Positions 19,255 to 38,977 of a stretch of DNA of 64,000 bases are shown piece by piece (within the stretch, counting starts at the first letter, position 1; each line of letters begins with the position of its first letter). Source of the stretch: Escherichia phage vB_EcoM-UFV06; the sequence record OP555980.1. One strand, written 5' to 3'. The translations under genes and the position numbers were made by a program. Below the pieces are notes generated by a model. The model was not told the origin of the DNA. It did not search any database and saw only the letters and a list, made by a program, of their open reading frames with translations.

Positions 19255-19283
19255 ATAGTACCACAGAGGAACAGTCTTGTAAA
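19255..19283 (-). promoter_or_regulatory. Early promoter (sigma70-type)
   Basis: Minus-strand TTTACA, 17 bp, TACTAT; member of a conserved repeated block. Confidence 0.6.
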
Positions 19284-19286
19284 CAA

Positions 19287-19601
19287 CTAAAAGAAACTTC
19301 TTTCACAATTTTTTCCACTGAACCACGCGCTCACTGCTTTCTTAGTCTCAGGAGCAGTGTTATCCATAAACCATTCAAAGGCAGCCTTTTTATGATTCTG
19401 GAGGGCTTCTCGGGCTTTAATCTGCTCACGGTCTATTAACACTAACATATGAGCCTTTCTTGTCACCATGGGCTTCTTATGATTTTTTGAATATTCCCAA
19501 TCATTTGTCCATCGCATCGTTGTTGCGAATTGAAGTACAGCTTCTTTAATTTTAGTTTCGTAAATTTCACGAGCCTTTGAGTATAACATTACTACCTCCA
19601 T
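19287..19601 (-). CDS. Hypothetical protein (104 aa)
   Basis: ORF. Confidence 0.45.
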   Translation of the reverse strand: MEVVMLYSKAREIYETKIKEAVLQFATTMRWTNDWEYSKNHKKPMVTRKAHMLVLIDREQIKAREALQNHKKAAFEWFMDNTAPETKKAVSAWFSGKNCERSFF

Positions 19602-19690
19602 TTACCAGTTTAATTCTAGTCATCTTTTTGATGGCAGTCCATATAATCTATTTCTGAACTGCCTTTTTATCTTAGAAGGCCTCTTATGAA

Positions 19691-20659
19691 TTATTTCAGA
19701 AGAGTAACCTCAGCGATTTCTTCCCAACCGTTTTTGTCGGTCATAATAAAGTCAGCAAGATAAAGAGCAGTACGCAGTGAAACATTGCGTAAACGATTAA
19801 CATTGACTTTCATCCATGATAATGCTTTATAAGTTTCTTCATCAGAAAGACCGCGCTTTTGCATCATGTCAGTTGAAAGAATAACATCTTCAACCCTGAC
19901 CATAATTTCTTCATTAGTGTGAACACCCAAATCCAAATAAACTGAGCGGGACACTAATGCTTGTAAATGTGGAGCAAGTTTAGTACCACGGTCTAATTCG
20001 CGGTCAATGTCAACGTTTGTGATAAAAACAATCGTTCCTTTAAATTCAAACTCACGCTCAATGCCTTTTTCTTCTAAGTAAGAAGATGCAGTGCTCCAGC
20101 AGACTTTACGGGTCTCTCCAGTGTCCAGAGCAGCTTTCAGAAGATTAAGAATGTCCATATCAGAGAAAACATCCACATCATCAATCAAAAGGACAGAATT
20201 CTCTTCACGATTATTCCAAAGCTGCTCATAAAGACCAATACCAGAGATTTTACCATTAATGCTTTTATATTCAATGTATCCAATATCATTTGCTTTATTT
20301 AAAGCTTTATCTAAAGAATACGTTTTACCAATACCCGCCGCACCAGAGATAATTAATGAACGAATGTTTCCGTTAATAATACCATTCGTCATCATTCCCA
20401 TAACATTAAATCTTTTATTAATGCGGGTTTTCATATCTTCATATGATTCTTTAACTTCTTCAACTTTTACACCATCATATGAAATGTCTGATTTGTAAAC
20501 CCAAACACCGCGACGTTTACCGTCAATTTCAACAAAAACTTTACCATCTCCTTGTGCATCTACTGGGGCATTATCAGGGAACCACTCACCTAAGAGTTCA
20601 AAAGTTCCAGAGATTTCTTTGCCAAAGTAGATACCCTTATTGATAGTTACAGTTTTCAT
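19691..20659 (-). CDS. P-loop/AAA-type ATPase, function unknown
   Basis: Walker A GAAGIGKTYS and Walker B LLIDDVD; ATG at 20659 downstream of an early promoter. Confidence 0.6.
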   Translation of the reverse strand: MKTVTINKGIYFGKEISGTFELLGEWFPDNAPVDAQGDGKVFVEIDGKRRGVWVYKSDISYDGVKVEEVKESYEDMKTRINKRFNVMGMMTNGIINGNIRSLIISGAAGIGKTYSLDKALNKANDIGYIEYKSINGKISGIGLYEQLWNNREENSVLLIDDVDVFSDMDILNLLKAALDTGETRKVCWSTASSYLEEKGIEREFEFKGTIVFITNVDIDRELDRGTKLAPHLQALVSRSVYLDLGVHTNEEIMVRVEDVILSTDMMQKRGLSDEETYKALSWMKVNVNRLRNVSLRTALYLADFIMTDKNGWEEIAEVTLLK

Positions 20660-20693
20660 TTTATTCTCCAAATCCGTATCAGTTGATAGTTGT

Positions 20694-20722
20694 ATAGTAC
20701 CATAAAGCTTTATGCTTGTAAA
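20694..20722 (-). promoter_or_regulatory. Early promoter (sigma70-type)
   Basis: Minus-strand TTTACA, 17 bp, TACTAT; same conserved block. Confidence 0.6.
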
Positions 20723-20754
20723 CTGTTTTGTGAAAAAATTTTTGAAATAAAAAA

Positions 20755-20772
20755 GGGAGCCCGAAGGCTCCC
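20755..20772 (-). terminator. Intrinsic terminator
   Basis: gggagcc-cgaa-ggctccc stem-loop followed by TTTTTT on the minus strand. Confidence 0.65.
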
Positions 20773-20774
20773 TA

Positions 20775-21788
20775 TCATTTATAATAACTTCGGTGGTTTT
20801 CAAGATAGACCTTCTCAAGGAAGTCATCCCAGAAACCCATGTCTACTTTTTGCTGCATACCGTTCTTAGAAGCTTCAGTAGATGCTGCTTCTACTTGATC
20901 GACCACATCTTCCAAAAACTCTTGAACTGTTTTAAATGGATGTTTACCCAACTTCACGTCGAGAATAAATGGAGCGTCTTGAAGTGGATAAACTAAGTCA
21001 CCAGTTTTGTAAATTTCCAATAGTTGAAGTCCACCACGACAGGCATGGCTCAGAGCTTTCCAGTCAATACCTTCATTGGCTTCGGCCTTACGAGCACGTT
21101 CACCATATTCAGCATCTAATTTGTTCAGTGACTGCTTAAGCTCAATAAGAGAAAGCGTTGTCTGATATTTACGACCCAACACAGTGTAGAACGTTTGTGG
21201 GCCTGTTTTCTCATGATTATGGAACACCCATTCACAGAATTCGTTTTCTGGAAGACGATGCTTAATATCTTCAATTTTAGTGCGACGTTGTCCTTGTGTT
21301 CCATCTTCTCGGTAGACATTCCGTTGATCAGGAATTTGATTAACTACTTTCAACACATCACGTAATGCAGCCAAACGAGAACCCTTGACACCGTATTTAG
21401 AAGCTTGCTTGCGAACATATCCTAAATAGGATTTCATGTTAGTCGTATAAAAACGAGAACGATTGTCTTGAATAAACTTCCACACATCAGGCAAATCAGA
21501 TTTAACCACTAGTTCAGGTGGAGTGTGAAGCATATCCAATGCTACAGTTTCACCATCTGCTGCTAATTTAAAGAAATACTTAAGACTATACAATTCGTGG
21601 TCAATATCATCTTTAGTGTTTTTAGATGATGTGTTGTTAGTGTTTTTACTCATGTGCTCTTTGACATTTCCAATAAGAATATCGCGAGCAGGAGGAACAA
21701 AGATTTCTTTAAAATCTACATCAGATTCTGGAGTAGAAGTTCCATAAAGATGACTACCAAAATAGCTTTTCATTACTGTTTTCATCAT
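20775..21788 (-). CDS. Predicted nucleotidyltransferase (pol-beta superfamily fold)
   Basis: N-terminal GSHLYGTSTPESDVDF matches the G[SG]x(9-13)DxD nucleotidyltransferase signature; 337 aa. Confidence 0.5.
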   Translation of the reverse strand: MMKTVMKSYFGSHLYGTSTPESDVDFKEIFVPPARDILIGNVKEHMSKNTNNTSSKNTKDDIDHELYSLKYFFKLAADGETVALDMLHTPPELVVKSDLPDVWKFIQDNRSRFYTTNMKSYLGYVRKQASKYGVKGSRLAALRDVLKVVNQIPDQRNVYREDGTQGQRRTKIEDIKHRLPENEFCEWVFHNHEKTGPQTFYTVLGRKYQTTLSLIELKQSLNKLDAEYGERARKAEANEGIDWKALSHACRGGLQLLEIYKTGDLVYPLQDAPFILDVKLGKHPFKTVQEFLEDVVDQVEAASTEASKNGMQQKVDMGFWDDFLEKVYLENHRSYYK

Positions 21789-22246
21789 TCAGCCTTATAT
21801 TCAATAACAGGACATACTTTAGCTTTACGGGCTTTTAAAAATTCGACGATAATAGATTTCTTGGGTTGAATAGGAGGTAAACCTTTATACGCCCTATCAA
21901 TATTTTCTACATGTAAAGCATAATCCTTTTTCCATTTATAATCTTTATATTTTTCATGCAGTTGTGCAGGAATAACAAATGAACCAATAATAAGTAAAAC
22001 AAGCAAAATGGCAAGTATAAATGCCGATGGAATAAGAGTCCATAAACTACCAAAAATAAGCCATTTCTGTATGATTTCTGCGCAGATAATAGTTAGACCT
22101 GCGAGTATAGTACATCCGAAAAAAGAAACGAAAAATGTAGGGATAACAATAGACCAAAAGTATGCACACAGTGTCTTAGGTCGTTTCCATTCGTCGTTAA
22201 ACAGTTTGAATAATTTATAGTGCCAAGAGTTTTCATTAATAATCAT
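21785..22246 (-). CDS. Hypothetical membrane protein (153 aa)
   Basis: Two long hydrophobic segments. Confidence 0.45.
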   Translation of the reverse strand: MIINENSWHYKLFKLFNDEWKRPKTLCAYFWSIVIPTFFVSFFGCTILAGLTIICAEIIQKWLIFGSLWTLIPSAFILAILLVLLIIGSFVIPAQLHEKYKDYKWKKDYALHVENIDRAYKGLPPIQPKKSIIVEFLKARKAKVCPVIEYKAE

Positions 22247-22248
22247 AA

Positions 22249-22770
22249 TTATCCTTTCATTGAAGGTGTAACAGTTGTTAAATACTTAATCATAGCTTCA
22301 GCTTCTGATTTTGATAATGAAATTTCTCCATTGTTTTGACGAATAGAAATAAAATCCGGATGACGGTCACCACCAGCTTTTAAAACACACATATAAGTAT
22401 CAGTTTCATCTTCAATATCTGAAATGATTGAAGCAGTTCCGCATGAATGTGGTTTTTGATAAATCAATACAGCTTTTCTTCCACCATTTGACTGTTCATA
22501 GGCTTTTAATACATCAAACAAATCAGTTCTTTTATCAATAGCTAAAATGTTATTTTCATCTTCAATGTTAAATCCTTCGGATACTTCATAAAGTGTTACC
22601 CATAAATCACCGATGTCAATAACAGCATTTCCTTTTCCACGACTTTCAAGAATATGACAAATTTTCTTTATTTCGTCATAACTCATTTTAATAATATCAT
22701 CTCCTTGAATAAGGAAGATGTCATTTTTAAATTTAACGCGAATTAAACCGCTTTCACTAGAAATAAACAT
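22249..22770 (-). CDS. Hypothetical protein (173 aa)
   Basis: C-terminal segment SIRQ...EAxAxxxYLxxVxPxM shared with the adjacent ORF. Confidence 0.45.
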   Translation of the reverse strand: MFISSESGLIRVKFKNDIFLIQGDDIIKMSYDEIKKICHILESRGKGNAVIDIGDLWVTLYEVSEGFNIEDENNILAIDKRTDLFDVLKAYEQSNGGRKAVLIYQKPHSCGTASIISDIEDETDTYMCVLKAGGDRHPDFISIRQNNGEISLSKSEAEAMIKYLTTVTPSMKG

Positions 22771-22776
22771 ATTTCC

Positions 22777-23334
22777 TCACTTTGAAATCATAGTTGGAAT
22801 AACAGAATCAAGATAAGTTTTTAGTGCAATAGCTTCGTCTTTGTTTAATGTAATGATATGTGATCGAAAATCGTCAATTTGACGAATAGATACTACATCT
22901 CCCTCTTCATAGCATTTTGAAACATTTAAAATAGTTTCATCATTCTGATTACAGGAGTTAGTAATAATAGCATTACATTTTTTAAACCATTTTAAATTAT
23001 GTTTTCTTTTAGTAGAATCATAAAAATATTTAATGTTAGTTATAAAATTATCCCAATTATTAATTGATAAGCACATTGACTCGCTTTTAATATTAAATCC
23101 TGGGCATGAAGAATAAAAATGAATTTTATGCTCATCATTAATGCTTACAATTTTATCAGTGTAAGCATATTCAATTTGGGTTAAACGAACAATTTCACTA
23201 GGCGTAAAATATAACATGTCGTCTTCTTGCGTCAAACGATACATGTTATTTACTTTTTCGATCGCTAATTCACCAAAAAGCACACTATCTTCTAATACTA
23301 ATCGTTTCATATTGATTCTCTTCGACTCACTCAC
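22777..23334 (-). CDS. Hypothetical protein (185 aa), paralog-like of 22249..22770
   Basis: Shared C-terminal motif. Confidence 0.45.
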   Translation of the reverse strand: MSESKRINMKRLVLEDSVLFGELAIEKVNNMYRLTQEDDMLYFTPSEIVRLTQIEYAYTDKIVSINDEHKIHFYSSCPGFNIKSESMCLSINNWDNFITNIKYFYDSTKRKHNLKWFKKCNAIITNSCNQNDETILNVSKCYEEGDVVSIRQIDDFRSHIITLNKDEAIALKTYLDSVIPTMISK

Positions 23335-23664
23335 AATTACATACTCCTCTGAATCATATCAATAATGTTGTTCACCAGATTATAAGTAAACATTGGGTAA
23401 TTATATTGAATCATCACATACACAACAAACAAAACTTTCATTCTCTTCTCCTTGGCAGTTGACAAGATTACTATACCATAACCTTGCCAACTTGTAAACC
23501 ATTAAATGACGTTTTCAATAAAATTCTGAAGCTTTGTGTGAGCATCAACCATGATTTTCATTTCTTCTTTGGCGAAAGCTGTACCTCTTTCCCGAGAAGA
23601 ACACTCATAGTCAGAAACTGCATTAGCATATTCTTCAATTAGTTTCATTAAAAACATCTGCTTT

Positions 23665-23859
23665 TCAGTTTTCATTATTCCACCTAATCATTTCAAGATA
23701 TTGAACTAACTTAGCTTTAGATTTATCCAAATCCTTTTTAGCTGCTTCTATACCGTCGTATGAATATCCTTCACAATGCTCAACTGCTAATTGATATGAA
23801 TCTATTTCAACATCACGTGCTAATTTAATGATTTTTTCAAACTGTTCGTGTGTCAGCAT
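23665..23859 (-). CDS. Hypothetical small protein (64 aa)
   Basis: ORF. Confidence 0.35.
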   Translation of the reverse strand: MLTHEQFEKIIKLARDVEIDSYQLAVEHCEGYSYDGIEAAKKDLDKSKAKLVQYLEMIRWNNEN

Positions 23860-23861
23860 AC

Positions 23862-24101
23862 TTAAACTCTCGTATTGTGATCGATAATTTCATCAAGAAA
23901 CATATCTAAAGCTTCCACAGCATTATCAACTTTAGCTTCAAGTTCATCAATACCTTTATTTGCAATGCCTGACGAAAACCAAGCAAAGTCGCTAAGTTCC
24001 TCATCTGCTTTACGAATTAAAGCTACCAATTCCTTAATTTTATCCGCTTGTTCGATACTAATCATTATTCCACCACATATGAAAGAGAGAATATTGCACA
24101 T
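23862..24101 (-). CDS. Hypothetical small protein (79 aa)
   Basis: ORF. Confidence 0.35.
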
Positions 24102-24253
24102 GCCATGTGAGTTGCAACTTCATCACACATATTATAACGTTTCTTAAGAAGTTCTACAAGTTTTTCACTAGTAACTTCATCCATGTTGACGAAAAAATCA
24201 CCATTAATGATGACGTAGATATTTCCTTCTTGATTGAGTGCTTCAATTTTCAT
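24065..24253 (-). CDS. Hypothetical small protein (about 62 aa)
   Basis: ATG at 24253 downstream of an early promoter. Confidence 0.35.
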
Positions 24254-24281
24254 GATGTTCTCCTCTTTATCCGATAGTTGT

Positions 24282-24310
24282 ATAGTATAACAGCTCAAAC
24301 GGAAAGTAAA
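24282..24310 (-). promoter_or_regulatory. Early promoter (sigma70-type)
   Basis: Minus-strand TTTACT, 17 bp, TACTAT. Confidence 0.5.
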
Positions 24311-24327
24311 CCGGTAAAATGAAAAAA

Positions 24328-24343
24328 GTCTCCCGAAGGAGAC
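24328..24343 (-). terminator. Intrinsic terminator
   Basis: gtctcc-cgaa-ggagac stem-loop followed by TTTTTT on the minus strand. Confidence 0.65.
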
Positions 24344-24348
24344 TAATG

Positions 24349-24735
24349 TTATTCGAGGGAAAGAAGATACTTACTCTGGTAAAACATCCCAGTAATATCA
24401 TCTATCGTGCTTTGGATGGCTGGAGGCATTTCTTTATAAATGCTGTTAGATTGGTCTAGTATGCGATCAATCATTTTAATTGTGTCGGTAGGAAGTTTAC
24501 TGGCATCTGGAATTGAAGGCGTGTATTTTCTACCAGAATACCCCAAATATTGCTCACCAAATTTATCAATCAAATCTGGCAACTCGGAAAAAATAAAATC
24601 GTATGCTTTGTGTCTAGCATAACTTTTAGTTTCAAAATGTGCAGAATGAAAATAAGCTTGTGCAGCCATTAATAAACCTAAGTATTCATCTGCCTTTGAA
24701 GGTTTTCCACTTTGTGAAAAGTCGCTGAATTTCAT
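24349..24735 (-). CDS. Hypothetical protein (128 aa)
   Basis: ORF directly downstream of rI. Confidence 0.45.
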
Positions 24736-25025
24736 TCAGTCTCCAATTTAATGTTCATAATTCTAGCGTATGATTGTGCCATCTCCGCGCCTCGTTCTAT
24801 ACATTCAAAATCAGAAGAGCACGGGTCATTTTTATAGGTCGTTCTCATAAAACTATAGAATTGTTCAGACGATTCTACGCTTTTATTTTCAAAAAGTGTA
24901 TAAACGTGCCTAATACCAGATTCCATAAATTTATCAAAATGAGGATCGACATTCGCTTCAATTGATGGAGATAAAACAAATGACAATCCTAGCATGGCAA
25001 AAAGTGCCGTTGCTTTTAAGGCCAT
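24732..25025 (-). CDS. rI: Lysis-inhibition regulator (antiholin) RI
   Basis: 97 aa; signal-anchor N-terminus MALKATALFAMLGLSFVLSPSIEA; matches recalled T4 RI. Confidence 0.8.
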   Translation of the reverse strand: MALKATALFAMLGLSFVLSPSIEANVDPHFDKFMESGIRHVYTLFENKSVESSEQFYSFMRTTYKNDPCSSDFECIERGAEMAQSYARIMNIKLETE

Positions 25026-25037
25026 AAAGGCCTCCTA

Positions 25038-25250
25038 TCATTTTTGTCCTGTATTTACTTTATGCCGATGCACGGCCTTAACTTTATCAAGGTATTTTTC
25101 AAAATTTCGCAATCTAGTATAGTCTGCCGGAGATTGGTTGAGTGATACTTCTCGACGCAAAGCTGAAATGATATTTCCAACTTCCCTACGAATTTCATCT
25201 AATTGAAGCACAGTAAGATTGCGAAGTTGCTTTTCAGTTAATTGTAGCAT
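25038..25250 (-). CDS. Hypothetical protein (70 aa)
   Basis: ORF between tk and rI. Confidence 0.4.
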
Positions 25251-25292
25251 ATATACCCCTTTAGTTAGATAAACCTATTTATAACTTTTGCA

Positions 25293-25874: not shown

Positions 25875-25883
25875 ATCACCTTC

Positions 25884-26069
25884 TTAAAGCGTATTCACAT
25901 AAGCTATTAATTCATTTTCTTTCTTATCAAACCGATCAGCAAATTCTTCCTGCTGCTCGGGAGATAGCGGGCCGTATTCATCATAAAAGGTGTTTGCTTC
26001 TATATGCTCATCTAGAAGTTCATGGATAAGCTCAAACAATTTATCTTTTTGTTCTTTGCTTAGACTCAT
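25884..26069 (-). CDS. Hypothetical small acidic protein (61 aa)
   Basis: ORF. Confidence 0.4.
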   Translation of the reverse strand: MSLSKEQKDKLFELIHELLDEHIEANTFYDEYGPLSPEQQEEFADRFDKKENELIAYVNTL

Positions 26070-27984: not shown

Positions 27985-27991
27985 GCTTACC

Positions 27992-28453
27992 TCATTGAGT
28001 TTTAATTACTGCTTTAGAAGCCTTTCCTGGTAAACGACGACTGTTAATAATTGCCATCCTGCATTGAAGCGACGGGTCTTTGAACTTCGCATTAGGTTTA
28101 CAAACTGTAAATCCAAGCCAAAGATTTCCATCTGTGATTTCTAAACGTCCAGGACGATATTCAACCCCATCAATAAAATCCTCGTCAATGTCAGGACGCG
28201 GAGGCATACTCAGGAATTCATTAACTTCTAAAACATGGTCTTTTATTTTATGGAATAATTCAAAAACGTATGTCTCATCAATCTCCCGTTGAATTGCGCG
28301 ATCAAGAAGATGTTGAGAATATTTTAGATGAAACGATGAGACCCCTGCTGCTTTTGATGCCTCACGAATCTCATTGTTAATTTGACGAAACTCCGACTCA
28401 AAGTGACGACGAAGCTTATTTCGACGGATAAAAACTTCTGTGTTGATAGTCAT
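27992..28453 (-). CDS. regB: Site-specific RNA endonuclease RegB
   Basis: 153 aa; length, position and sequence as recalled for T4 RegB. Confidence 0.8.
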   Translation of the reverse strand: MTINTEVFIRRNKLRRHFESEFRQINNEIREASKAAGVSSFHLKYSQHLLDRAIQREIDETYVFELFHKIKDHVLEVNEFLSMPPRPDIDEDFIDGVEYRPGRLEITDGNLWLGFTVCKPNAKFKDPSLQCRMAIINSRRLPGKASKAVIKTQ

Positions 28454-28480
28454 GTTATTCTCCTCTTAACTGATAGAAAA

Positions 28481-28509
28481 ATTATACCACAGTCAAGAGG
28501 AAAAGTAAA
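28481..28509 (-). promoter_or_regulatory. Early promoter (sigma70-type)
   Basis: Minus-strand TTTACT, 17 bp, TATAAT. Confidence 0.55.
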
Positions 28510-28512
28510 CAG

Positions 28513-29633: not shown

Positions 29634-29640
29634 ATAAACC

Positions 29641-30659: not shown

Positions 30660-31133
30660 TTATTTGAATGATTTAACGTACTGAATAGAACCTTTACTAT
30701 TCACAAAGGCAATTTTACCATTTTTGTTATACATAGTAGCAGTACGTTGATAGCCATAAGTTTGTTTACCAGATTGATAACCAACTAATGCGAAATTATC
30801 TTCACCCATTTTATTCTGTTTAGCGCGAATGCGTTCATGACCATGTGCCATAAGAACCTTAGCATCACCAGTTGCAATGGACCGACGAGTTTTTTCATCT
30901 TCAACTGTATTAACAAAGTCGTCAAATGAATCAAATTTAGCATGAGATTTATTATACAGTTTTCCATCTACTGCATAATTATATCCTTGTACATCCATCT
31001 CAACTTCTGTACCATCATCTAATACCGCAGTAATTTTCTGTCCTTTTTTAAATTTCAAAAGATCAGTAAAAGATTCAGCAATAATTTGAGAATTAATAGC
31101 TGCTTCAGTAATAAATTCTTTATACGTTTTCAT
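30660..31133 (-). CDS. Internal (capsid-targeted) protein, ip3-position
   Basis: N-terminus MKTYKEFITE matches the capsid-targeting-sequence pattern with an I-x-E cleavage site; 157 aa. Confidence 0.55.
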   Translation of the reverse strand: MKTYKEFITEAAINSQIIAESFTDLLKFKKGQKITAVLDDGTEVEMDVQGYNYAVDGKLYNKSHAKFDSFDDFVNTVEDEKTRRSIATGDAKVLMAHGHERIRAKQNKMGEDNFALVGYQSGKQTYGYQRTATMYNKNGKIAFVNSKGSIQYVKSFK

Positions 31134-31149
31134 GTGTATCCTTTAATTT

Positions 31150-31467
31150 TTATTCTTTAGGGAAGTTTTTAGAATATGCATCATAAAGCTTATTTCCAAT
31201 ACGGCGGAAAACTCTAGCCGCAAAACGATTTTCTGGGTTTTTAATCATGATTTGCATCATATAAGTACCCGCGTCAGAAAGAGCTTCTTCATAGTACCCG
31301 TTAATTTCTTTAAGAGTCCTACGTTTACCACCAGGACCATCAACAGTGATTTTCCATTTACCTGTAGAAGTGCGACTTGGCGGTTCAACTTGTTCAATCC
31401 AGATATAACCGCCTTCTACACGCTGTCCTGCAACAGATTCTGCAATAAATTCTTTATACGTTTTCAT
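31150..31467 (-). CDS. Internal (capsid-targeted) protein, ip2-position
   Basis: N-terminus MKTYKEFIAE; 105 aa, basic. Confidence 0.55.
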   Translation of the reverse strand: MKTYKEFIAESVAGQRVEGGYIWIEQVEPPSRTSTGKWKITVDGPGGKRRTLKEINGYYEEALSDAGTYMMQIMIKNPENRFAARVFRRIGNKLYDAYSKNFPKE

Positions 31468-31504
31468 GTGTTTCCTTTAAATATTTTAATTAGTAACTGT
31501 GAAT

Positions 31505-31533
31505 ATACTATCACAGTTTTAGGAGAAAGTAAA
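31505..31533 (-). promoter_or_regulatory. Early promoter (sigma70-type)
   Basis: Minus-strand TTTACT, 17 bp, TG-n-TAGTAT. Confidence 0.5.
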
Positions 31534-31538
31534 CAACT

Positions 31539-32507
<969 letters not shown>

Positions 32508-32526
<19 letters not shown>

Positions 32527-32849
32527 TCAGTGATAAAGTTATTTAAATTTTGAGTGTATTTCTTTTCATCAAAAATCTTTTGTTGTCTGCGTAGCCGCCA
32601 TGGCATTTCAATGAACGTGTACCATATCCCAGATAATATTGCTGCTGTAAAAATATTAACAAGTATGGTTAAAAGAATCCAATCTCCTATTCTGTCCATT
32701 GGATTTTTTATAAAAAAGTAAAATACGAATGATGTCACAGGACCTATTAATACATCAGTAGGAATTAGCTGACGCTTTAGTTCATACTTCACAGGTTCAC
32801 TTGGAAGGTATAGTGATGGCTTTGACATATTCTCTACATTCCTTAACAA
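32508..32849 (-). CDS. Hypothetical membrane protein
   Basis: Two hydrophobic segments; start uncertain. Confidence 0.4.
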
Positions 32850-33402
32850 ATTTTTCTAATAATAAATCGCTTTCAAAATTGGGATTTTCCACGAATTTAT
32901 CAAAAAGATCATCAACAATAGTTAAGATATTCTTTTTACTAAGAATACACTTATTTTCATGCTTCGTTTCAGAATCAACTATAAGAGTAAAGAAATATTT
33001 CTTGCCCTGAAATTTTACAGTAGTATCAATATAGAATAAATTTGACTTTTGTAAATTACGTTTAAACCATGCATCACTTAAACTATAAACGCCAAGATAA
33101 TCATAATCGTCGTTTAAATAACAGACCGTCCATTCAGGAGAAACAAAATCAGTAAATTCAACGTCAAAATCGCATGTTAATGAATGAATTGATTCAATAC
33201 TGTTAATAAGTATTCCAGGACGTATTAAAGACTTTTTACCTTTATAAAATCCAGAAAGACTTTCATCAGTTTCATATGAAGAACCCCAATAATAATTACG
33301 TCCTTCTGCCATACGTTTAAGAGCATTTAATAATTGATCTGGAACATCAACCTGTCTTTGGAACTCTTCAAACATTGAATTGAAATCACTTTGCATTTTC
33401 AT
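32797..33402 (-). CDS. Hypothetical protein (201 aa)
   Basis: ORF. Confidence 0.45.
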   Translation of the reverse strand: MKMQSDFNSMFEEFQRQVDVPDQLLNALKRMAEGRNYYWGSSYETDESLSGFYKGKKSLIRPGILINSIESIHSLTCDFDVEFTDFVSPEWTVCYLNDDYDYLGVYSLSDAWFKRNLQKSNLFYIDTTVKFQGKKYFFTLIVDSETKHENKCILSKKNILTIVDDLFDKFVENPNFESDLLLEKFVKECREYVKAITIPSK

Positions 33403-33422
33403 TCCTACTTACTTCAAGTAAT

Positions 33423-33438
33423 AGGGGCCGAAGCCCCT
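33423..33438 (-). terminator. UUCG-tetraloop hairpin
   Basis: aggggc-cgaa-gcccct stem; weak U-run. Confidence 0.4.
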
Positions 33439-33443
33439 TATCA

Positions 33444-34037
33444 TTATTTCAGAGAATTAATATATTCCTGAACATCGGCAGAGGTAGTTTCAACCCCGGA
33501 AATATTACCGTTAAAGGTTTCAACTCGAGCAAGAGTATCTTCAATATCAACCTTAGTCAGTGCTGCAATTTCAACTACATCATCAGCAGTACTAATTCCG
33601 AGGGCATTCGCGGCGCGAGTTTCACGGATATATTCCAATTTAACTGCAAGTTCTTGGCGAGCATCATCCAATTCAACTACTTTCTTGGCGATTTCAATTC
33701 GCATTTCAGCATACCCATCAGCTTTAGTAGTTAACTGCTCAGCTGTTCGACGATATAGCAAGCCGAGTTTAGCATGCATTGTTACATCTTGACCTTCGGA
33801 AAGAAGCTTGCGAATTTCACGCTCTTTTGATTCGGCCTGTCGATTCTTTTCGATAACAAGTTCACGAATACGTTTTTCTTCATTAATAGATTTAACAGAA
33901 GCAGTTTTTAAATCTTTAATTTTATCAAGTAGTTTTGCTGCTGCAGCAGTATACTGTTCTTCAACAGATAGATTTTTAGCCATAGCAGAACCAAGTTTAG
34001 TGCGAATAAACTCAACAATTTTCTTCAGTGTGTTCAT
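33444..34037 (-). CDS. Hypothetical coiled-coil protein (197 aa)
   Basis: Heptad-rich, charged. Confidence 0.45.
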
Positions 34038-34080
34038 AGTATTTCCTTAGGTTGATTAAGATTTAAAATCCGTGAGAGTA

Positions 34081-34257
34081 TTATACTCCGGATAGTTTGT
34101 AAACTATTTCAACATCGCCTTTTGCTGCTTTATAACCTTCAGCCCAAGATATAACCGAGTTTTTATCCGAAGATTCAAATTCTGGCATTGGGCTTTCGCC
34201 AATGTTCACGCAGTATGTTTCTTCATTTTCGTCAAACCAAATAATTAAAGTAGTCAT
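34081..34257 (-). CDS. Hypothetical small protein (58 aa)
   Basis: Hand-translated ORF MTTLIIWFDENEETY...; below the track cutoff. Confidence 0.3.
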   Translation of the reverse strand: MTTLIIWFDENEETYCVNIGESPMPEFESSDKNSVISWAEGYKAAKGDVEIVYKLSGV

Positions 34258-34325
34258 TTATTTCTCCGTTTCTGTATTTGTTTTGATAAGTCTATAATAA
34301 CACCGTCCTTGGTGTTTGTACACAA

Positions 34326-34589
34326 TTATTTCATATTATTGAAATATTCTTCTGCAATTTCGTCGTTATCATGGTAAACTTTAGAAGACAGTTTAACATA
34401 ACCTTCAGCAGTGAACATGTTAATCACAACCTTTACAGTATACCACTGACCATCTTCATTACCCATTACTGCGTAAGTTTCAAACATCGGATGATCAGGA
34501 CCGATAACTTTAATATCATTCACTGTACGACCAAAATCTTCTGAAACACATTTCATAAAGAAGTTGAACAGTTCGCCGTAATTATCCAT
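34326..34589 (-). CDS. Hypothetical protein (about 87 aa)
   Basis: ATG at 34589 with GGAG Shine-Dalgarno downstream of an early promoter. Confidence 0.45.
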   Translation of the reverse strand: MDNYGELFNFFMKCVSEDFGRTVNDIKVIGPDHPMFETYAVMGNEDGQWYTVKVVINMFTAEGYVKLSSKVYHDNDEIAEEYFNNMK

Positions 34590-34632
34590 TTCATTCTCCA
34601 AGTTGTTTTCTGTATCAGTAGTTGATAGTTGT

Positions 34633-34661
34633 ATAGTACCATAGAAGAACAGGGATGTAAA
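34633..34661 (-). promoter_or_regulatory. Early promoter (sigma70-type)
   Basis: Minus-strand TTTACA, 17 bp, TACTAT with upstream A/T-rich element; same conserved block. Confidence 0.6.
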
Positions 34662-34795
34662 CAGTTTTGTGAAAAATTTTTTAAAAAGTTTTGGGGAATT
34701 CTAGGGCAAGGAGGGGAAATTAAAGGATAGGATAATATATTATAAAGGGTAGAAACTAAATGATGCCTAGAGAGGCCTGGAAAGGCTTAGATACC

Positions 34796-34826
34796 AAAAA
34801 GCCCCAACCTTTTGGTCGGGACTAAG
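34796..34826 (-). terminator. Intrinsic terminator, copy 1 of a 31-bp direct repeat
   Basis: Minus-strand 10-bp stem, AAAA loop, then UUUUU; 30/31 identical to 35351..35381. Confidence 0.7.
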
Positions 34827-34830
34827 AATG

Positions 34831-35304
34831 TTATTTGATTTGTTTAGCAGACCAAATGCGGTCTTTAATAATTTTTTGGATGTCTTCAACATACTCAAGA
34901 GAATGAGCATGTGGGTTATCTTTAAAGCTATGAGCACGAGCTAGCTTTTGGCCTTCAGTTTTGATTACTAAAAGCTCTTTAAGGATAGCTTCATATTTGG
35001 AGATAATTCCTTTAACGATATTTTTTTCTTGTGCGACTTTAGGATCTGCTTTAGGAGCAGGTTTACCCGAAGCCTTTGCAAAAGCAGCGCCAGTAGCAAC
35101 TAAACTTTTCCAGGCCATACTAACTGCATTTCCCGTAAATCCTTCCGCTTTCATGTCGCGTGCGAACTGGAATCGTGATTCATCAGAAGCATCTTTGTAA
35201 GAATATTTACCCGCTGCAATGGCTGCTTTTGCGACAGCTTGAATTTCGGTGCTAGATGCTTCATTTAACACCGCTTCATTTAAAAATTGAGTATATGATT
35301 TCAT
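34831..35304 (-). CDS. Putative capsid-targeted internal protein (157 aa), function unknown
   Basis: N-terminus MKSYTQFLNE resembles the capsid targeting sequence with an L-x-E site; late promoter upstream; flanked by duplicated terminators. Confidence 0.5.
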   Translation of the reverse strand: MKSYTQFLNEAVLNEASSTEIQAVAKAAIAAGKYSYKDASDESRFQFARDMKAEGFTGNAVSMAWKSLVATGAAFAKASGKPAPKADPKVAQEKNIVKGIISKYEAILKELLVIKTEGQKLARAHSFKDNPHAHSLEYVEDIQKIIKDRIWSAKQIK

Positions 35305-35340
35305 CTTATTTCCTGTTTTAATTCGTGGATTTAATATACT

Positions 35341-35348
35341 TATTTATA
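35341..35348 (-). promoter_or_regulatory. Late promoter box TATAAATA
   Basis: Perfect TATAAATA on the minus strand about 36 bp upstream of the ATG at 35304. Confidence 0.55.
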
Positions 35349-35350
35349 CT

Positions 35351-35381
35351 AAAAAGCCCCAACCTTTTGGTCGGGGCTAAG
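35351..35381 (-). terminator. Intrinsic terminator, copy 2 of the 31-bp direct repeat
   Basis: Minus-strand 10-bp stem, AAAA loop, then UUUUU. Confidence 0.7.
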
Positions 35382-35429
35382 CCTTGCGGCAACCTTGTCG
35401 GGGTTCCACCTGCTAAGGCAAGTGTTTGT

Positions 35430-35521
35430 ACGAAACGCCGGGATTCGAACCCGGTTATTAAGCAGTTGACGCTACTCAATATTTTTAAAAGGCCATATCT
35501 CGACCATATCCGAACGTTCCG
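35430..35521 (-). ncRNA. Candidate tRNA-like/structured small RNA
   Basis: Canonical T-arm ccggg-TTCGAAT-cccgg with an acceptor-like 7-bp pairing, but no clean D or anticodon arm; T4 is reported to encode stable RNAs near its tRNAs. Confidence 0.3.
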
Positions 35522-35685
35522 TCAAAAACGCTACTCGGCTTACGGCAAAGATATTTCCTCGAATCGATAATTCGGTGCGCCGTTTCTGCTGTGATAGTAA
35601 AGAGCCAGAACACAGTAAAACTGTGGGAGGAAACTATACTCCAGGGAACATCAGTCCGACGACTTACCGGTAGCGACCCGGTTTC

Positions 35686-36036
35686 TTAGTATTCTTTTAA
35701 AGCATCAATTTGTTCACGGCGTTTACGCCATAAATCAATTGCTTCATAAGCAGATTCAGCATTTCGAATTAGCCGACATTTATATAAAGACTTGTGATTT
35801 TGGTATTGCGTAGATAATGGAATTTTATCTAAAAGGTCTTTGCGTTCAAAGTATTCGTAACCATCTAAACCAAATGAACGATTTTTGAGAAATTGCCAAT
35901 GACCATATTCGTTTTCGACATAAACATAATCTGCATGCTGATAAAGCAAATTAATTACACGTTCAGAAATAACAGTATCATTATGATTAAAATAGAATGT
36001 TAAATCATGAACTACTAAATAAACATTACCTTTCAT
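35686..36036 (-). CDS. Hypothetical protein (116 aa)
   Basis: ORF immediately downstream of tRNA-Arg. Confidence 0.45.
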   Translation of the reverse strand: MKGNVYLVVHDLTFYFNHNDTVISERVINLLYQHADYVYVENEYGHWQFLKNRSFGLDGYEYFERKDLLDKIPLSTQYQNHKSLYKCRLIRNAESAYEAIDLWRKRREQIDALKEY

Positions 36037-36054
36037 ATTTTCCTCACTTATAAT

Positions 36055-36130
36055 TGGTCGAGGCAGTAGGGATCGAACCTACGACCCAGGACTTAGAAGG
36101 TCCTTGCTCTTCCTTCTGAGCTATGCCCCG
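36055..36130 (-). tRNA. tRNA-Arg (anticodon UCU)
   Basis: Hand-folded cloverleaf; anticodon loop CUUCUAA; CCA encoded. Confidence 0.8.
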
Positions 36131-36134
36131 TAAT

Positions 36135-36210
36135 TGGGGTGACCGATGGGAGTCGAACCCATGACTACGAGAATCACAATCTCGAGTTCTACCAACTGAA
36201 CTACGGCCAC
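36135..36210 (-). tRNA. tRNA-His (anticodon GUG)
   Basis: Cloverleaf; anticodon stem CGAGA/UCUCG, loop UUGUGAU; discriminator C73; no encoded G-1. Confidence 0.75.
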
Positions 36211-36324
36211 ATTAATACCTACTCCAACAATCATGATGTCTTCACACGAAATTAAGAGAAGAGTGATCAGTTCAACCCCTATAATCGCGTCAAGTAGATA
36301 TTAATGTGACAGTTGTCACAAATT

Positions 36325-36399
36325 TGGCGGACGTGATAGGATTCGAACCTATAACCAATCGCTTAACAGGCGATCGCTCTGCCATTGAGCTACACATCC
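36325..36399 (-). tRNA. tRNA-Asn (anticodon GUU)
   Basis: Cloverleaf; anticodon stem AUCGC/GCGAU, loop CUGUUAA. Confidence 0.75.
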
Positions 36400-36403
36400 A
36401 AAT

Positions 36404-36490
36404 TGGTGGGGAGTGATGGAGTCGAACCACCCGAGTCGCAATGACAATGAATTTACAGTCCACACCGCTACCTCTACGGGATAACTCCCC
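36404..36490 (-). tRNA. tRNA-Tyr (anticodon GUA), class II, probable
   Basis: 87 nt with long variable arm; GACUGUAAAU anticodon region as in bacterial tRNA-Tyr; anticodon stem has two G-U pairs. Confidence 0.55.
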
Positions 36491-36496
36491 TTAATT

Positions 36497-36571
36497 TGGT
36501 GGCCCTGGGTGGAATTGAACCACCATCTGGCGATTATGAGTCGCTTGCTTGAACCTTCCAGCTACAGGGCC
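36497..36571 (-). tRNA. tRNA with anticodon CAU (Ile2 or Met)
   Basis: Cloverleaf; loop CUCAUAA; T4 tRNA-Ile is reported to use a modified CAU-type anticodon. Confidence 0.7.
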
Positions 36572-36572
36572 T

Positions 36573-36648
36573 TGGTGCTGATTGACGGAATCGAACCGCC
36601 GACATCCTCATTACAAGTGAGGTGCTCTACCTACTGAGCTAAATCAGC
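36573..36648 (-). tRNA. tRNA-Thr (anticodon UGU)
   Basis: Cloverleaf; loop CUUGUAA. Confidence 0.8.
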
Positions 36649-36653
36649 AAAGC

Positions 36654-36743
36654 TGGCGGAGGCGATAGGATTTGAACCTATGAATCGCCGGAGCGACTGC
36701 CGGTTTTCAAGACCGGTGCATTAAACCACTCTGCCACGCCTCC
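36654..36743 (-). tRNA. tRNA-Ser (anticodon UGA), class II
   Basis: 90 nt; anticodon stem CCGGU/ACCGG, loop CUUGAAA; long variable arm. Confidence 0.8.
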
Positions 36744-36745
36744 AG

Positions 36746-36819
36746 TCTCCATACAAGGATTTGAACCTTGGACCTCCTGATCCCAAATCAGGCGCTCTAC
36801 CAAACTGAGCTACACGGAG
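36746..36819 (-). tRNA. tRNA-Pro (anticodon UGG)
   Basis: Cloverleaf; loop UUUGGGA; CCA not encoded. Confidence 0.75.
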
Positions 36820-36829
36820 TAAATTAAAT

Positions 36830-36903
<74 letters not shown>

Positions 36904-36908
36904 AAATT

Positions 36909-36995
36909 TGGTGCGAGAAGTGGGACTCGAACCCACAAGGAAATCATTCCGCAGCATTTTAAGTGCTGTGCCTTTACCAATTTGACCATTCTCGC
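36909..36995 (-). tRNA. tRNA-Leu (anticodon UAA), class II
   Basis: 87 nt; anticodon stem CAGCA/UGCUG, loop CUUAAAA. Confidence 0.8.
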
Positions 36996-36996
36996 G

Positions 36997-37069
36997 CTGG
37001 GAATAAAGGATTCGAACCTTTGCATCTAGCAGTCAAAGTGCTATGCCTTACCAACTTGGCTAATTCCCA
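36997..37069 (-). tRNA. tRNA-Gln (anticodon UUG)
   Basis: Cloverleaf; anticodon stem UAGCA/UGCUA, loop CUUUGAC; CCA not encoded. Confidence 0.75.
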
Positions 37070-37155
37070 ATTATTAACAAAGGCTCTTTAGCAAGAACCC
37101 TTGATGATAGAGGGTATTAATCAGTGCGGTATGAGTTAATAATAACAAATAATTC

Positions 37156-37680
37156 TTAAAGCAAATTAAACATTTTAACAGTCGGCAAAACAATTTCTTT
37201 TTCTATATAAGAGTATTTAACACTCTCAACTACACGCAAAAAATCATAATCATAATACTCAGAAGCACTGCCTAAAATATTAATAAGTCCTTCAAGCACT
37301 TTATTACCATTCACAAAGAATAAGTCAAATACACGTTCTTCGTCTTCTTCGGATTTATTACCAAGGTCAACTTCTATGTCAAAGACCTTTTTAATGAATT
37401 CTGGATAAAGTTGTTCTGAGAACAGTCCTTCAACCAAGTATTCATAAATAAAAAGCGATTGCTCGCTGAACAAGCCATTACCACAATAACGTTCAGCTTT
37501 AGTACTAGAATGTCTGCTTTTAAACTTCTTTAAAAGATATTGGAATTGTAAGATTTCATGCTCTTCTACGCCAAACAGTGTTTTAGTTTTATAGTTGTCA
37601 CCATCATTTTCCCAGGTAGTGACATCAATTACGTAACCCTGTGGAATTGTAGTACCTAAACAAATATTCATTTTCACCAC
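37156..37680 (-). CDS. Hypothetical protein (174 aa)
   Basis: ORF upstream of the tRNA cluster. Confidence 0.45.
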   Translation of the reverse strand: MVKMNICLGTTIPQGYVIDVTTWENDGDNYKTKTLFGVEEHEILQFQYLLKKFKSRHSSTKAERYCGNGLFSEQSLFIYEYLVEGLFSEQLYPEFIKKVFDIEVDLGNKSEEDEERVFDLFFVNGNKVLEGLINILGSASEYYDYDFLRVVESVKYSYIEKEIVLPTVKMFNLL

Positions 37681-37964
37681 GCTGCATTAATATACGTTTT
37701 CTGAATGCATTCAAGACCTAAAGGATTCTTGAAAATATCATATTCAAGAGGACCTTTTTCTGTTTCAATAAAGAAATCAAAATTTACTGTATTAAATTTA
37801 CGGTCTTCCTTCACTAATTTAACTTGAGAAGATGAACGGTCAACATAAACCTTTTCAACTTCAAAACATGTTAAAACGCCATAATCATCAATCAAGGCTT
37901 TAGCCGCGTCTTGATCATATTTATATCCATTTTCAATGGATGATACTTTCGCATAAAGAATCAT
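37674..37964 (-). CDS. Hypothetical protein (96 aa)
   Basis: ORF. Confidence 0.4.
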   Translation of the reverse strand: MILYAKVSSIENGYKYDQDAAKALIDDYGVLTCFEVEKVYVDRSSSQVKLVKEDRKFNTVNFDFFIETEKGPLEYDIFKNPLGLECIQKTYINAAW

Positions 37965-37966
37965 TA

Positions 37967-38371
37967 TTAACCTTTATCAACAATAGTATGTGTATGGGCA
38001 TTTACGATTTGCCACCAGTCAAAACTATCGCCAAATCGTTTTGATTTATTGTCTTCAATAATTTGGCGTAATTCATCTTCTGTTTCAGCATACGCAATCA
38101 AATCATCATATCCACCGCAAGGATAGTAATTATCGCCTGCGAACAAAAGAAAATTTACTTTAGATGGGTCTACATAATAATGCTCTTTAGGATATTTAGT
38201 TCCTTTCCAATCAGTTACTTCAACATAACGATAAGAAAATCCATTTTTACTTTCAACCCAACTCCACGCTTCAAAAGGAGTATTAAAAACTCTATCAGGT
38301 ATTAAATTACCTTCAAAATGAGAAGGATTTGCATAATCCCCAGCATAAACATAATATTCGTTAATATTCAT
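37967..38371 (-). CDS. Hypothetical protein (134 aa)
   Basis: ORF. Confidence 0.45.
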   Translation of the reverse strand: MNINEYYVYAGDYANPSHFEGNLIPDRVFNTPFEAWSWVESKNGFSYRYVEVTDWKGTKYPKEHYYVDPSKVNFLLFAGDNYYPCGGYDDLIAYAETEDELRQIIEDNKSKRFGDSFDWWQIVNAHTHTIVDKG

Positions 38372-38557
38372 TTATTCACCTTTAGAAATTTTATCCATAA
38401 CAATAGCGATTAAACCAATTAAAAATGCTACTACAAGTGAAAAAACATTTTCTGCTGTAGTCAATAATCCGCATATAAATCCAACAAACATTGAAAAACT
38501 AAAAGCGGAAGCAGAAATTGCAATAGCAACATTTCGAATTAATTCACAACGTTTCAT
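38372..38557 (-). CDS. Hypothetical small membrane protein (61 aa)
   Basis: Hydrophobic throughout; early promoter upstream. Confidence 0.4.
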   Translation of the reverse strand: MKRCELIRNVAIAISASAFSFSMFVGFICGLLTTAENVFSLVVAFLIGLIAIVMDKISKGE

Positions 38558-38585
38558 TTTATTCTCCTCGGTAGTTGATAGGGTA

Positions 38586-38614
38586 ATAGTATCACAACTA
38601 AAACCCTATGTAAA
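38586..38614 (-). promoter_or_regulatory. Early promoter (sigma70-type)
   Basis: Minus-strand TTTACA, 17 bp, TG-n-TACTAT; GAGGAG Shine-Dalgarno downstream. Confidence 0.6.
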
Positions 38615-38633
38615 CAACTTTGTGAAATATTTA

Positions 38634-38918
38634 TTACAAAAGATTTTTAGCAATAATTTTAAGCTGAGCTACTGAAATATGCTTGGCTTTAAACAAAGCA
38701 GTTTCTTCAGCAGGGGAGATAACGATTGTAGCACCATCTTTCTTAGCGGACCATCCATCACCCAGGTAAACAGTACCTTTGACTTCTTCGCCATCAACCA
38801 GGCTAATCATCGGTTTACCTTCACGTCCTTTGTTTGCTTTAATAACTTCAGAAGTAAGGGTCGCTTCAGTCAAAGTAGAAGCGTTAGTGGTTGAAGTGAA
38901 TTCTTGATAAGTTTTCAT
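38634..38918 (-). CDS. ipI: Internal protein I
   Basis: 94 aa; N-terminus MKTYQEF capsid-targeting sequence; position upstream of 57B. Confidence 0.7.
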   Translation of the reverse strand: MKTYQEFTSTTNASTLTEATLTSEVIKANKGREGKPMISLVDGEEVKGTVYLGDGWSAKKDGATIVISPAEETALFKAKHISVAQLKIIAKNLL

Positions 38919-38948
38919 TTTATTTTCCTAATTAATTTTGATGAGGTA

Positions 38949-38977
38949 ATAGTATCACTACCTCATCAGCATGTAAA
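38949..38977 (-). promoter_or_regulatory. Early promoter for ipI
   Basis: Minus-strand TTTACA, 17 bp, TACTAT; the -10 lies inside a perfect 10-bp inverted repeat. Confidence 0.6.

Follow-up and report, generated by a model that had tools for sequence, protein, structure and literature searches.

Early promoters of bacteriophage T4 have been catalogued since 1989 (Liebig & Ruger 1989, as cited in PMC9391042). Their -35 element, GTTTAC, is accompanied by an UP element, an arrangement that has been compared across T4-like phages (Nolan et al. 2006, PMC1524935) and described under the name of 'uber' promoters made up of UP, -35, TGn and -10 elements (Hinton 2010, PMC2988021). For the PeSLs of phages PST and T4, composites of an early promoter and a stem-loop or terminator, the consensus TTTACW-N17-TAYWAT has been given and a role in the shuffling of gene cassettes has been proposed (Comeau et al. 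2014, PMC4122927). In RB49 and phi1 promoter and terminator activity as well as mini-circles produced by PeSL-PeSL exchange have been demonstrated (Arbiol et al. 2010, PMC2839356), and the recombination idea has been traced to the work of Repoila et al. (1994) on the internal protein (IP) loci of T-even phages, as discussed in PMC2839356 and PMC4122927. In this work we have analyzed a stretch of 64,000 nucleotides from Escherichia phage vB_EcoM-UFV06 (sequence record OP555980.1), referred to below as the window, which carries a family of repeated promoter-like blocks on its minus strand. A preliminary description of the window had taken these blocks for early promoters that may double as recombination sites. 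Both halves of this interpretation have already been published; what we report is a known phenomenon in a new isolate, and its IP loci show no difference from the polymorphic T-even IP loci of Repoila et al. (1994) as these are presented in the later discussions. The blocks are probably T4-type early promoters, many of them PeSLs, which are kept by selection and at a minority of sites take part in recombination as a side effect.

The motif TTTACW-N17-TAYWAT, identical to the published PeSL consensus, occurs 11 times in the window against 0.42 +/- 0.62 expected, and none of 100 shuffles reached 11. Seven of the matches fall between 19255 and 38977 (19255-19283, 20694-20722, 24282-24310, 28481-28509, 34633-34661, 38586-38614 and 38949-38977); the blocks are named here after the position of the first T of the -35, e.g. 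P19283. When the invariant G preceding the -35 was added to the motif and up to one mismatch allowed, 18 matches were found against 1.68 expected. The minus-strand orientation claimed for the family holds for all 11 strict and all 18 relaxed matches. Copies with one mismatch that are followed by a Shine-Dalgarno (SD) sequence and ATG lie at 23470-23498 (TATAGT), 31505-31533 (TAGTAT) and 34294-34322 (GTGTAC), while at 31614-31642 (GTTAAC), inside gene e at its 3' end, no SD and ATG follow. The 'at least eight' early promoters announced for 19255-38977 are thus reached when the one-mismatch copies are counted, the strict motif alone giving seven; the family also reaches beyond this span, with gene-linked copies at 8052-8080 and 16284-16312. 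Two further strict matches, 7613-7641(-) and 12579-12607(-), are placed inside coding sequence without SD and ATG downstream and are kept in relatives; they may be internal promoters or may be kept through coding constraint, and were excluded as unproven. A scan with a generic sigma-70 consensus gave no enrichment over shuffled sequence (76 found, 78.8 expected), so the signal is specific to the T4-type consensus. A 75-column position weight matrix (PWM) derived from nine sites proved over-fitted (leave-one-out scores 3.4-62, null maxima up to 6.3); it was used solely to flag 23498 and 31533, and no statistics were drawn from it.

Similarity among the copies extends well beyond the two hexamers. 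Four repeat families (D1, D3, D4 and D6) link 19237-19314, 20681-20747, 34615-34692, 38568-38645, 38933-38999 and 24273-24311, and also take in 8036-8102, so that the long near-identical blocks previously described are real, with 67-78 nt at 63-82% identity. The 23-mer quoted as common to three of them recurs without a mismatch at 19240-19262 and 34618-34640 and with two at 20679-20701 (chance expectation 0.00), and the common A/T-rich upstream element, TTTCACAAARNNGTTTAC, is found five times against 0.02 expected. The peptides LCGTIQLST and LYGTIQLST, which had been pointed out as a sign of this conservation, are exact translations of 19242-19268(-) and 20681-20707(-), respectively; both are promoter DNA read through and not coding sequence.

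The consensus of the 11 copies that precede genes reads T.ttca.aaA.ttGTTTACat-(spacer)-TgTGgTA.tAT.....TATcaacTa...agga. In each of the 11 strict matches the -35 is GTTTAC[AT], with G at -36 and T at -33, and it is separated by exactly 17 bp from a -10 of the form TA(C/T)(T/A)AT; two further copies depart from the latter by one mismatch. The -10 is extended by TG(G/A) in 10 of 11 aligned blocks, the exception being 24282-24310. Upstream of the -35, at about -40 to -60, an UP element with the consensus ..AAAAATTTTTCACAAA.. / T.ttca.aaA.tt is present, weaker in 16312, 24310 and 28509, and downstream of the extended -10, TG(G/A)TA(C/T)(T/A)AT, a conserved start region, ..CTATCAAC.., follows. The 11 copies are placed 20-45 nt upstream of the SD and ATG of early genes and are co-oriented with these genes. 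Every copy lies inside the nrdC-57B early region, and none among the plus-strand baseplate genes beyond 42 kb.

All of this corresponds to T4 early promoters: the GTTTAC -35 with T at -33, the 17-bp spacer, the TGn -10, the A-rich UP element at -40 to -60 and the location upstream of early genes and small open reading frames (ORFs) on the early strand. The blocks are orthologues of T4's own promoters, found at syntenic positions in T4, T2, R5505 and G2133 and near-identical in the first two. The differences are of no substance; minor variants are the loss of TGn at 24282-24310 and the -10 sequences TAGTAT and TATAGT, and the promoters in the window are predicted ones. The depositors of the Lutter and fPS-90 records annotate promoters at block sites, with terminators at two of them; the T4 GenBank and RefSeq records contain no promoter features. 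The early-promoter reading is therefore upheld by the anatomy of the blocks, their conservation at matching positions in T4 and T2 and the annotation made by others.

The setting of the blocks is that of a Tequatrovirus. The interval 19000-39200 is 100% identical to Escherichia phages vB_EcoM-UFV09 and UFV11 and 95-97% identical to several hundred further Tequatrovirus genomes, T4 and T2 included, and the genome G+C content is 35%. By comparison with annotated records the early region follows the gene order of T4 (nrdC.8 to nrdC.11, mobD.x, rI, tk, vs, regB, e, the tRNA cluster, ipI and 57B), all on the minus strand, and the baseplate genes on the plus strand start near 42 kb, in agreement with the switch in GC skew.

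Like PeSLs, many of the blocks combine an early promoter with a stem-loop or terminator, and they stand upstream of small ORFs in hyperplastic regions; unlike the PeSL model, statistically supported stem-loops or adjacent terminators are found at about half of the promoters in the window. Hairpins with strong fold support are present at P19283 (z = -6.9), P28509 (z = -4.5), P23498 and P38977 (z = -3.9 each), weaker ones at 31533 and 38614, and intrinsic terminators directly upstream of P20722 and P24310. Fold z-scores and a terminator scan gave nothing convincing at 34661, 8080 and 16312. The hairpins are of two kinds: at P23498 and P38977 the arms bracket the -10, and at P19283 and P28509 the spacer pairs with the downstream SD. 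In the latter arrangement the complementarity covers 15 bp ahead of the nrdC.8 homologue (19215-19284(-)) and forms a hairpin of about 17 bp ahead of regB (28440-28510(-)). Since transcripts started at the promoter lack the 5' arm, the hairpins would, on the analogy of other T4 genes, silence or terminate read-through RNA only; the spacer-SD hairpins, predicted to form only in read-through transcripts, suggest promoter-specific translation.

Breakpoints between the window and its relatives were mapped on a panel of 16 genomes, comprising T4, T2, R5505, ESh33, REP4, Sf21, TH09, HP3, Lutter, G2133, HY01 and five IMG/VR contigs (a RegB scan of IMG/VR gave 11 loci, five of them close enough for the panel; the INPHARED collection is far richer). 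Junctions were taken from chained BLAST high-scoring segment pairs (HSPs), and events of at least 30 bp within 19000-39200 were counted as breakpoint sites. A filter against equal-length patches dropped some true replacements (mobD at 21789-22752; 31146-31492), so the breakpoint and allele counts are conservative approximations. Junctions at block edges were found at 20669-20683 and 20707-20771 (P20722), at 31482-31494 and 31550 (P31533), and at 38575-38598 and 38632 (P38614). At P20722 and P38614 the HSPs overlap by 24-54 bp, which means that in the relative the insert has a copy of the block at either side.

The first of these loci is the nrdC.10/nrdC.11 junction at 20.7 kb. P20722 (20667..20775(-)) is a complete PeSL upstream of nrdC.10, with an intrinsic terminator carrying a T-run at 20754-20773, an A/T-rich upstream element, the -35 at 20717-20722, the -10 at 20694-20699 and the leader ...CTATCAAC, and it is a hypervariable site of cassette insertion: about 45% of 45 sampled genomes contain an insert, in at least six size classes. 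Every cassette is bounded by a promoter block, and divergence sets in right after CTATCAA or inside the terminator/UP repeat. In R5505 an extra ORF comes right after ...ACAACTATCAA, and beyond it stands a degenerate second promoter that has a hairpin. In one IMG/VR phage a promoter block separates two tandem cassettes that differ from each other. The cassette of T2, HY01 and G2133 consists of promoter, ORF and terminator and is flanked by direct repeats of CCCCTTTTTTATTTCAAAAATTTTTCACAAA..GTTTAC; several records annotate it as an ADP-ribosylase. As a separate observation, apparently unrelated small ORFs inserted at the equivalents of the 20.7 and 38.6 kb sites have a common leader, CTATCAAAACAAATG.G.AAATTGGAGA.., directly after the promoter (R5505 at about 14700-14985 and about 34790-35077, and two further records, L009 and L010).

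At 31 kb, P31533 (31478..31558(-); GTTTACT-N17-TAGTAT, with an 8-bp hairpin bracketing the -10) precedes an IP-like ORF (31150-31467) and forms the right edge of an IP/denV cassette locus. The SD and first codons of two adjacent IP-type genes form a repeat here (repeat D15): one copy is at 31104..31151(-) and the other, 90% identical and directly downstream of P31533, at 31438..31485(-). A junction overlap of 43 bp in T2 falls in this repeat, that is in the IP-gene 5' ends and outside the promoter block. No denV (endonuclease V, UV repair) was detected in the 64-kb window by blastn and tblastn; the IP-like ORF of 105 amino acids occupies its usual place, and relatives have denV alone, denV together with IP genes, or other combinations.

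A third locus, at 34.1-34.3 kb, is a site of small-ORF replacement with about five alleles. Its left edge is a degenerate promoter-like block (34048..34128(-)) in which GTTTACA and TATAAT stand at the wrong spacing, T4 and G2133 having intact strict promoters at the matching junction; its right edge, where nine junction edges meet at 34326, is a weak block, 34322 (34267..34347(-); GTGTACA-N17-TATTAT), upstream of the ORF at 34081-34257.

The fourth locus is of the ipI type. P38614 (38559..38639(-)), in which TAGGGT and ACCCTA bracket the -10, lies upstream of the trna.4 homologue at its left edge and has junctions at 38575, 38598 and 38632, with a 24-bp overlap in R5505. P38977 (38885..39002(-); -35 at 38972-38977, -10 at 38949-38954, a 13-bp hairpin straddling the -10) comprises promoter, leader and about the first 11 IP codons, and this unit serves as the right-hand homology of the cassette. 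Relatives have exchanged IP genes both at 30.6-31.5 kb and at 38.6-38.9 kb and differ there in the number of IP and small-ORF cassettes (e.g. ipI, Ip5, Ip7, IpIV, ipII, ipIII); the boundaries of the IP loci are early promoters with A/T-rich hairpins together with conserved first codons. Taken together, the panel contains 4-7 alleles for each of the four block-bounded loci and 1-3 for each of 13 other variable loci (Mann-Whitney p=0.0009, in a post hoc, hand-curated comparison), and at 20.7, 31, 34.1-34.3 and 38.6 kb the window behaves as the PeSL model predicts.

The use of the blocks as recombination sites is supported at 20.7, 31 and 38.6 kb for strong blocks and at 34.1-34.3 kb for weak ones, and it finds no support at P19283, P24310 and P28509, which are unbroken. 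Under a uniform null the blocks are enriched in breakpoints: of 48 distinct sites, six are contained in the nine strong blocks, with 3.6% of the sequence (p=0.007), and nine in strong plus weak blocks, with 4.8% (p=0.0004). Other results weigh against a causal role of the shared sequence. Viable rearrangements must end at gene boundaries, and under a null restricted to these there is no enrichment, either for strong blocks (6/39 vs 17.4%, p=0.69) or with weak blocks added (9/39 vs 20.7%, p=0.42); the corresponding p values of Fisher's test, applied to intergenic gaps, are 0.73 and 0.45. Outside any block lie 39 of the 48 sites. The coincidence of breakpoints with blocks, which had been named as the test of the recombination idea, has a mixed outcome: it exists at the four cassette loci and overall gives no excess over what gene boundaries account for. 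The 16 relatives are, besides, phylogenetically non-independent, the number of alleles comes from manual curation, and the multi-allelism of the IP loci could come from diversifying selection alone.

The second group of such results concerns blocks that stay cold. No breakpoint of the panel lies inside P19283, P23498, P24310, P28509 or P34661, nor in P8080 or P16312 outside the span, and at P38977 the junctions (38885-38899) fall a little downstream, within the initial codons of the IP gene. In the panel more than half of the strong blocks are without an associated rearrangement, the other point in which the window departs from the PeSL model. Three cold blocks were followed through the database with a 401-bp probe, a record being counted if matched in one place over at least 80% of it. 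P19283 is intact in 498/529 records, with no indel in 40 sampled genomes, P24310 in 499/501 and P28509 in 496/501, and essentially all sampled rows are of exact length. P24310 is a full unit of terminator and promoter and is cold nonetheless, so PeSL composition is no predictor of a hot spot. The stability of P19283 may result from the fact that its upstream half is nrdC.9 coding sequence; P24310 has no such overlap, and selection or contingency must therefore matter. Breaks in cold blocks were met in two genomes. Both are simple deletions whose far end has no promoter, and neither genome offers a natural promoter-promoter deletion. In Sf25 a small stretch is deleted up to the -10 of P24310. 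The laboratory mutant T4_7t1 (OL964745) has lost 2,054 bp (T4 62,789-64,842) between the spacer of the regB promoter and a point within vs.8 at which no repeat is found. The deletion takes away vs.3-vs.7, most of vs.8 and the -35 of the regB promoter, and the vs.8 remnant is fused to the spacer.

P19283 (19228..19308(-); -35 at 19278-19283, -10 at 19255-19260) lies upstream of the nrdC.8 homologue, contains the 15-bp hairpin and is identical in T4 and T2; the nrdC.9 stop codon is 4 nt from its -35. P34661 (34606..34686(-)), which precedes the e.8 homologue, comes closest to the family consensus, has the top PWM score and shares the exact 23-mer with P19283. P23498 (23443..23523(-)) consists of GTTTACA-N17-TATAGT upstream of a small mobD.2-like ORF, with a 15-bp hairpin straddling the -10 and a PWM score of 30.9, and is kept in T4, T2, R5505 and G2133. 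P28509 (28454..28534(-)) is the regB early promoter, its spacer complementary to the regB SD. The PeSL P24310 (24255..24345(-)), upstream of the mobD.5 homologue, has its terminator at 24327-24344, its -35 at 24305-24310 and its -10 at 24282-24287, and the fPS-90 record carries 'terminator' and 'promoter' annotations at the equivalent place; the promoter itself (24282-24310(-)) reads TGTTATACTAT here and TGTGGTACTAT in T4, T2, R5505 and G2133, the TGn being lost (TTA vs TGG in T4). P8080 (8025..8105(-)) has the same TTTCACAAAGTTGTTTACA upstream element and -35 and shows no breakpoint in the seven relatives that cover it, and P16312 (16257..16337(-)) is kept in T4 and R5505, again with no breakpoint in the panel.

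Junctions outside the blocks occur at terminator repeats, IP-gene 5' ends and tRNA genes or with microhomology of at most 23 bp, and some, in mobD and the tRNA region, are marked by homing-endonuclease genes. A 36-nt terminator hairpin (repeat D16) at 34791..34826(-) and, at 94% identity, 35346..35381(-) flanks a cassette with an ORF of 157 amino acids (34831-35304); relatives have zero, one or two cassettes here, with junction overlaps of 35-55 bp, and T4, T2 and G2133 have none; the exchange here would be recombination between terminators and not promoters. At 32733-32752, 12 of 16 relatives are longer by about 870-900 bp (the e.2-e.4 membrane-protein genes) and three others by about 610 bp. 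The lineage of the window seems to have undergone a deletion at this point, which has 6-20 bp of junction microhomology, a fused ORF (32508-32849) and no promoter block. At 45239-45244 ESh33 has an insert of about 560 bp after gene 5 (39395-39954 of that record), which the window lacks; a homing endonuclease is annotated by the ESh33 record in this stretch.

The main rival explanation is that the blocks are promoters and nothing else: their likeness would come from polymerase binding, breakpoints would coincide with them through a filter of viability, accessory genes would bring or need a promoter of their own in the manner of 'morons', and the exchanges would proceed by illegitimate or microhomology-based recombination or by homologous recombination in flanking genes. 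The absence of enrichment over the gene-boundary null agrees with this, as do the three near-identical blocks unbroken in about 500 genomes and the T4_7t1 deletion, which ends within the regB promoter and has no partner promoter. Many junctions have at most 23 bp of microhomology and no promoter (32733-32752, 37976/38372, 21798/23666), and T4 has been documented to recombine at homologies of 2-10 bp (PMC9391042). The longest junction overlaps (24-55 bp), on the other hand, are found exclusively at dispersed repeats, i.e. promoter blocks, terminators, IP 5' ends and tRNAs; the unrelated cassettes at 20.7 kb all start after CTATCAA or in the terminator/UP repeat, and the tandem ones are separated by a promoter; allele richness is concentrated at block-flanked loci; and mini-circles from PeSL-PeSL exchange have been shown experimentally (PMC2839356). 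On balance we regard an explanation by promoters alone as unlikely, though one to be taken seriously. The cassettes do resemble Hendrix's 'morons', as that model is discussed in PMC2839356, in having their own promoter and terminator, and differ in being co-oriented with their neighbours. With the 'linkers' of Botstein and Campbell, discussed in the same paper, the blocks share the character of short conserved intergenic crossover points, the linkers here being predicted functional promoters.

A more specific proposal is that the start region (+1 to about +12, ATCAAC(T/A)A), together with hairpins that bracket the -10, constitutes a defined cassette junction. Candidates for a mechanism acting there are template switching coupled to transcription and a nuclease or strand exchange directed by sequence or structure. 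If true, it would account for the occurrence of the leader CTATCAAAACAAA... in unrelated accessory genes and for the division of sequence-identical blocks into hot and cold ones; we consider it improbable. More improbable still is a dedicated site-specific mobility in which the -10 hairpin or CTATCAA serves as the site of a recombinase or nuclease and cassettes move as integron-like mini-circles. It is true that unrelated inserts share sharp boundaries at identical nucleotides, after CTATCAA, and a specific protein has been raised as a possibility with the detection of mini-circles in RB49 and phi1 (Arbiol et al., PMC2839356). Sharp boundaries are expected, though, wherever shared homology ends; no integrase- or recombinase-like gene stands beside the cassettes in annotated relatives; identical blocks elsewhere are never used; and other junctions are at terminators or at the 5' ends of coding sequences. 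Integron cassettes, an analogy drawn in PMC2839356, are likewise small, promoter-associated and arranged in tandem at defined sites, but neither an integrase nor an attC-type site is found here, and general homologous recombination is the simplest explanation. A chance resemblance due to the A/T-rich composition of intergenic sequence, which the low G+C content and the generic sigma-70 scan at shuffled level might invite, is refuted by the shuffle controls, with the excess of strict and relaxed matches on one strand only and the negligible expectations for the 23-mer and the UP motif; the fixed position upstream of SD and ATG and the conservation of the blocks in T4 and T2 also speak against it.

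The explanation that we favour, promoters maintained by selection with occasional recombination, can be set out as follows. The blocks would act as immediate-early promoters, recognized within minutes of infection by the sigma-70 RNA polymerase of the host in its unmodified form, the UP element serving the C-terminal domains of the alpha subunits. Similarity between the copies would come chiefly from shared selection for very strong polymerase binding. In T4 and T2 the copies show equal conservation. Gene conversion between paralogues was considered as well and could not be separated from such constraint, the T4 and T2 orthologues being as similar as the paralogues. The recombination machinery of T4 is very active. 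The blocks would offer it 15-25 bp of exact homology within 60-80 bp of imperfect identity, which it may well be able to use, and cassettes of promoter, leader and ORF, with or without a terminator, would be inserted, lost or swapped at 20.7, 31, 34.1-34.3 and 38.6 kb with boundaries at the block edges. As the same block is never broken elsewhere, homology would permit exchange, and context and selection would decide which products survive; candidate factors in this survival are a location in free intergenic space and a cargo of accessory or anti-defence genes, those of internal proteins for example.

Three features of the window stand apart from the early promoters. A sequence upstream of the gene 1 (dNMP kinase) homologue, GTTTAATGCTTCAGTTTTGTGTGTTATAAT at 40427-40456(-), has a MotA-box-like aaTGCTTca 12 bp upstream of TATAAT and is identical in T4 and R5505; it has the appearance of a middle promoter of T4 rather than of an early promoter. 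At 51384-51581(+) an exact tandem duplication of 99 bp (2 x 33 codons in frame, FPEAALPGNKGFRQISIITNPLEAKAHPNDPND twice) is present, apparently inside the gp8-like baseplate wedge gene, judging by its position. The 6/6 relatives that cover the region have a single copy; the duplication may be genuine structural variation or may have arisen in the assembly of the UFV phages. At 44429-44596(+) a repeat of eight codons (24 nt), V-x-G-x-x-x-x-x, is present in six to seven copies; it fits the beta-helix of the gp5 tail lysozyme and has no relation to the promoter blocks.

What this isolate adds to the known picture is modest. The division of near-identical blocks into hot and cold ones, together with the outcome of the gene-boundary null, leads to a weaker form of the PeSL hypothesis, in which homology appears permissive and not determining, and the PeSL model is tempered to this extent. 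For the genus, the nrdC.10/nrdC.11 junction at 20.7 kb, the 34.1-34.3 kb locus and the IP loci are places in which to look for accessory and anti-defence cargo of Tequatrovirus.

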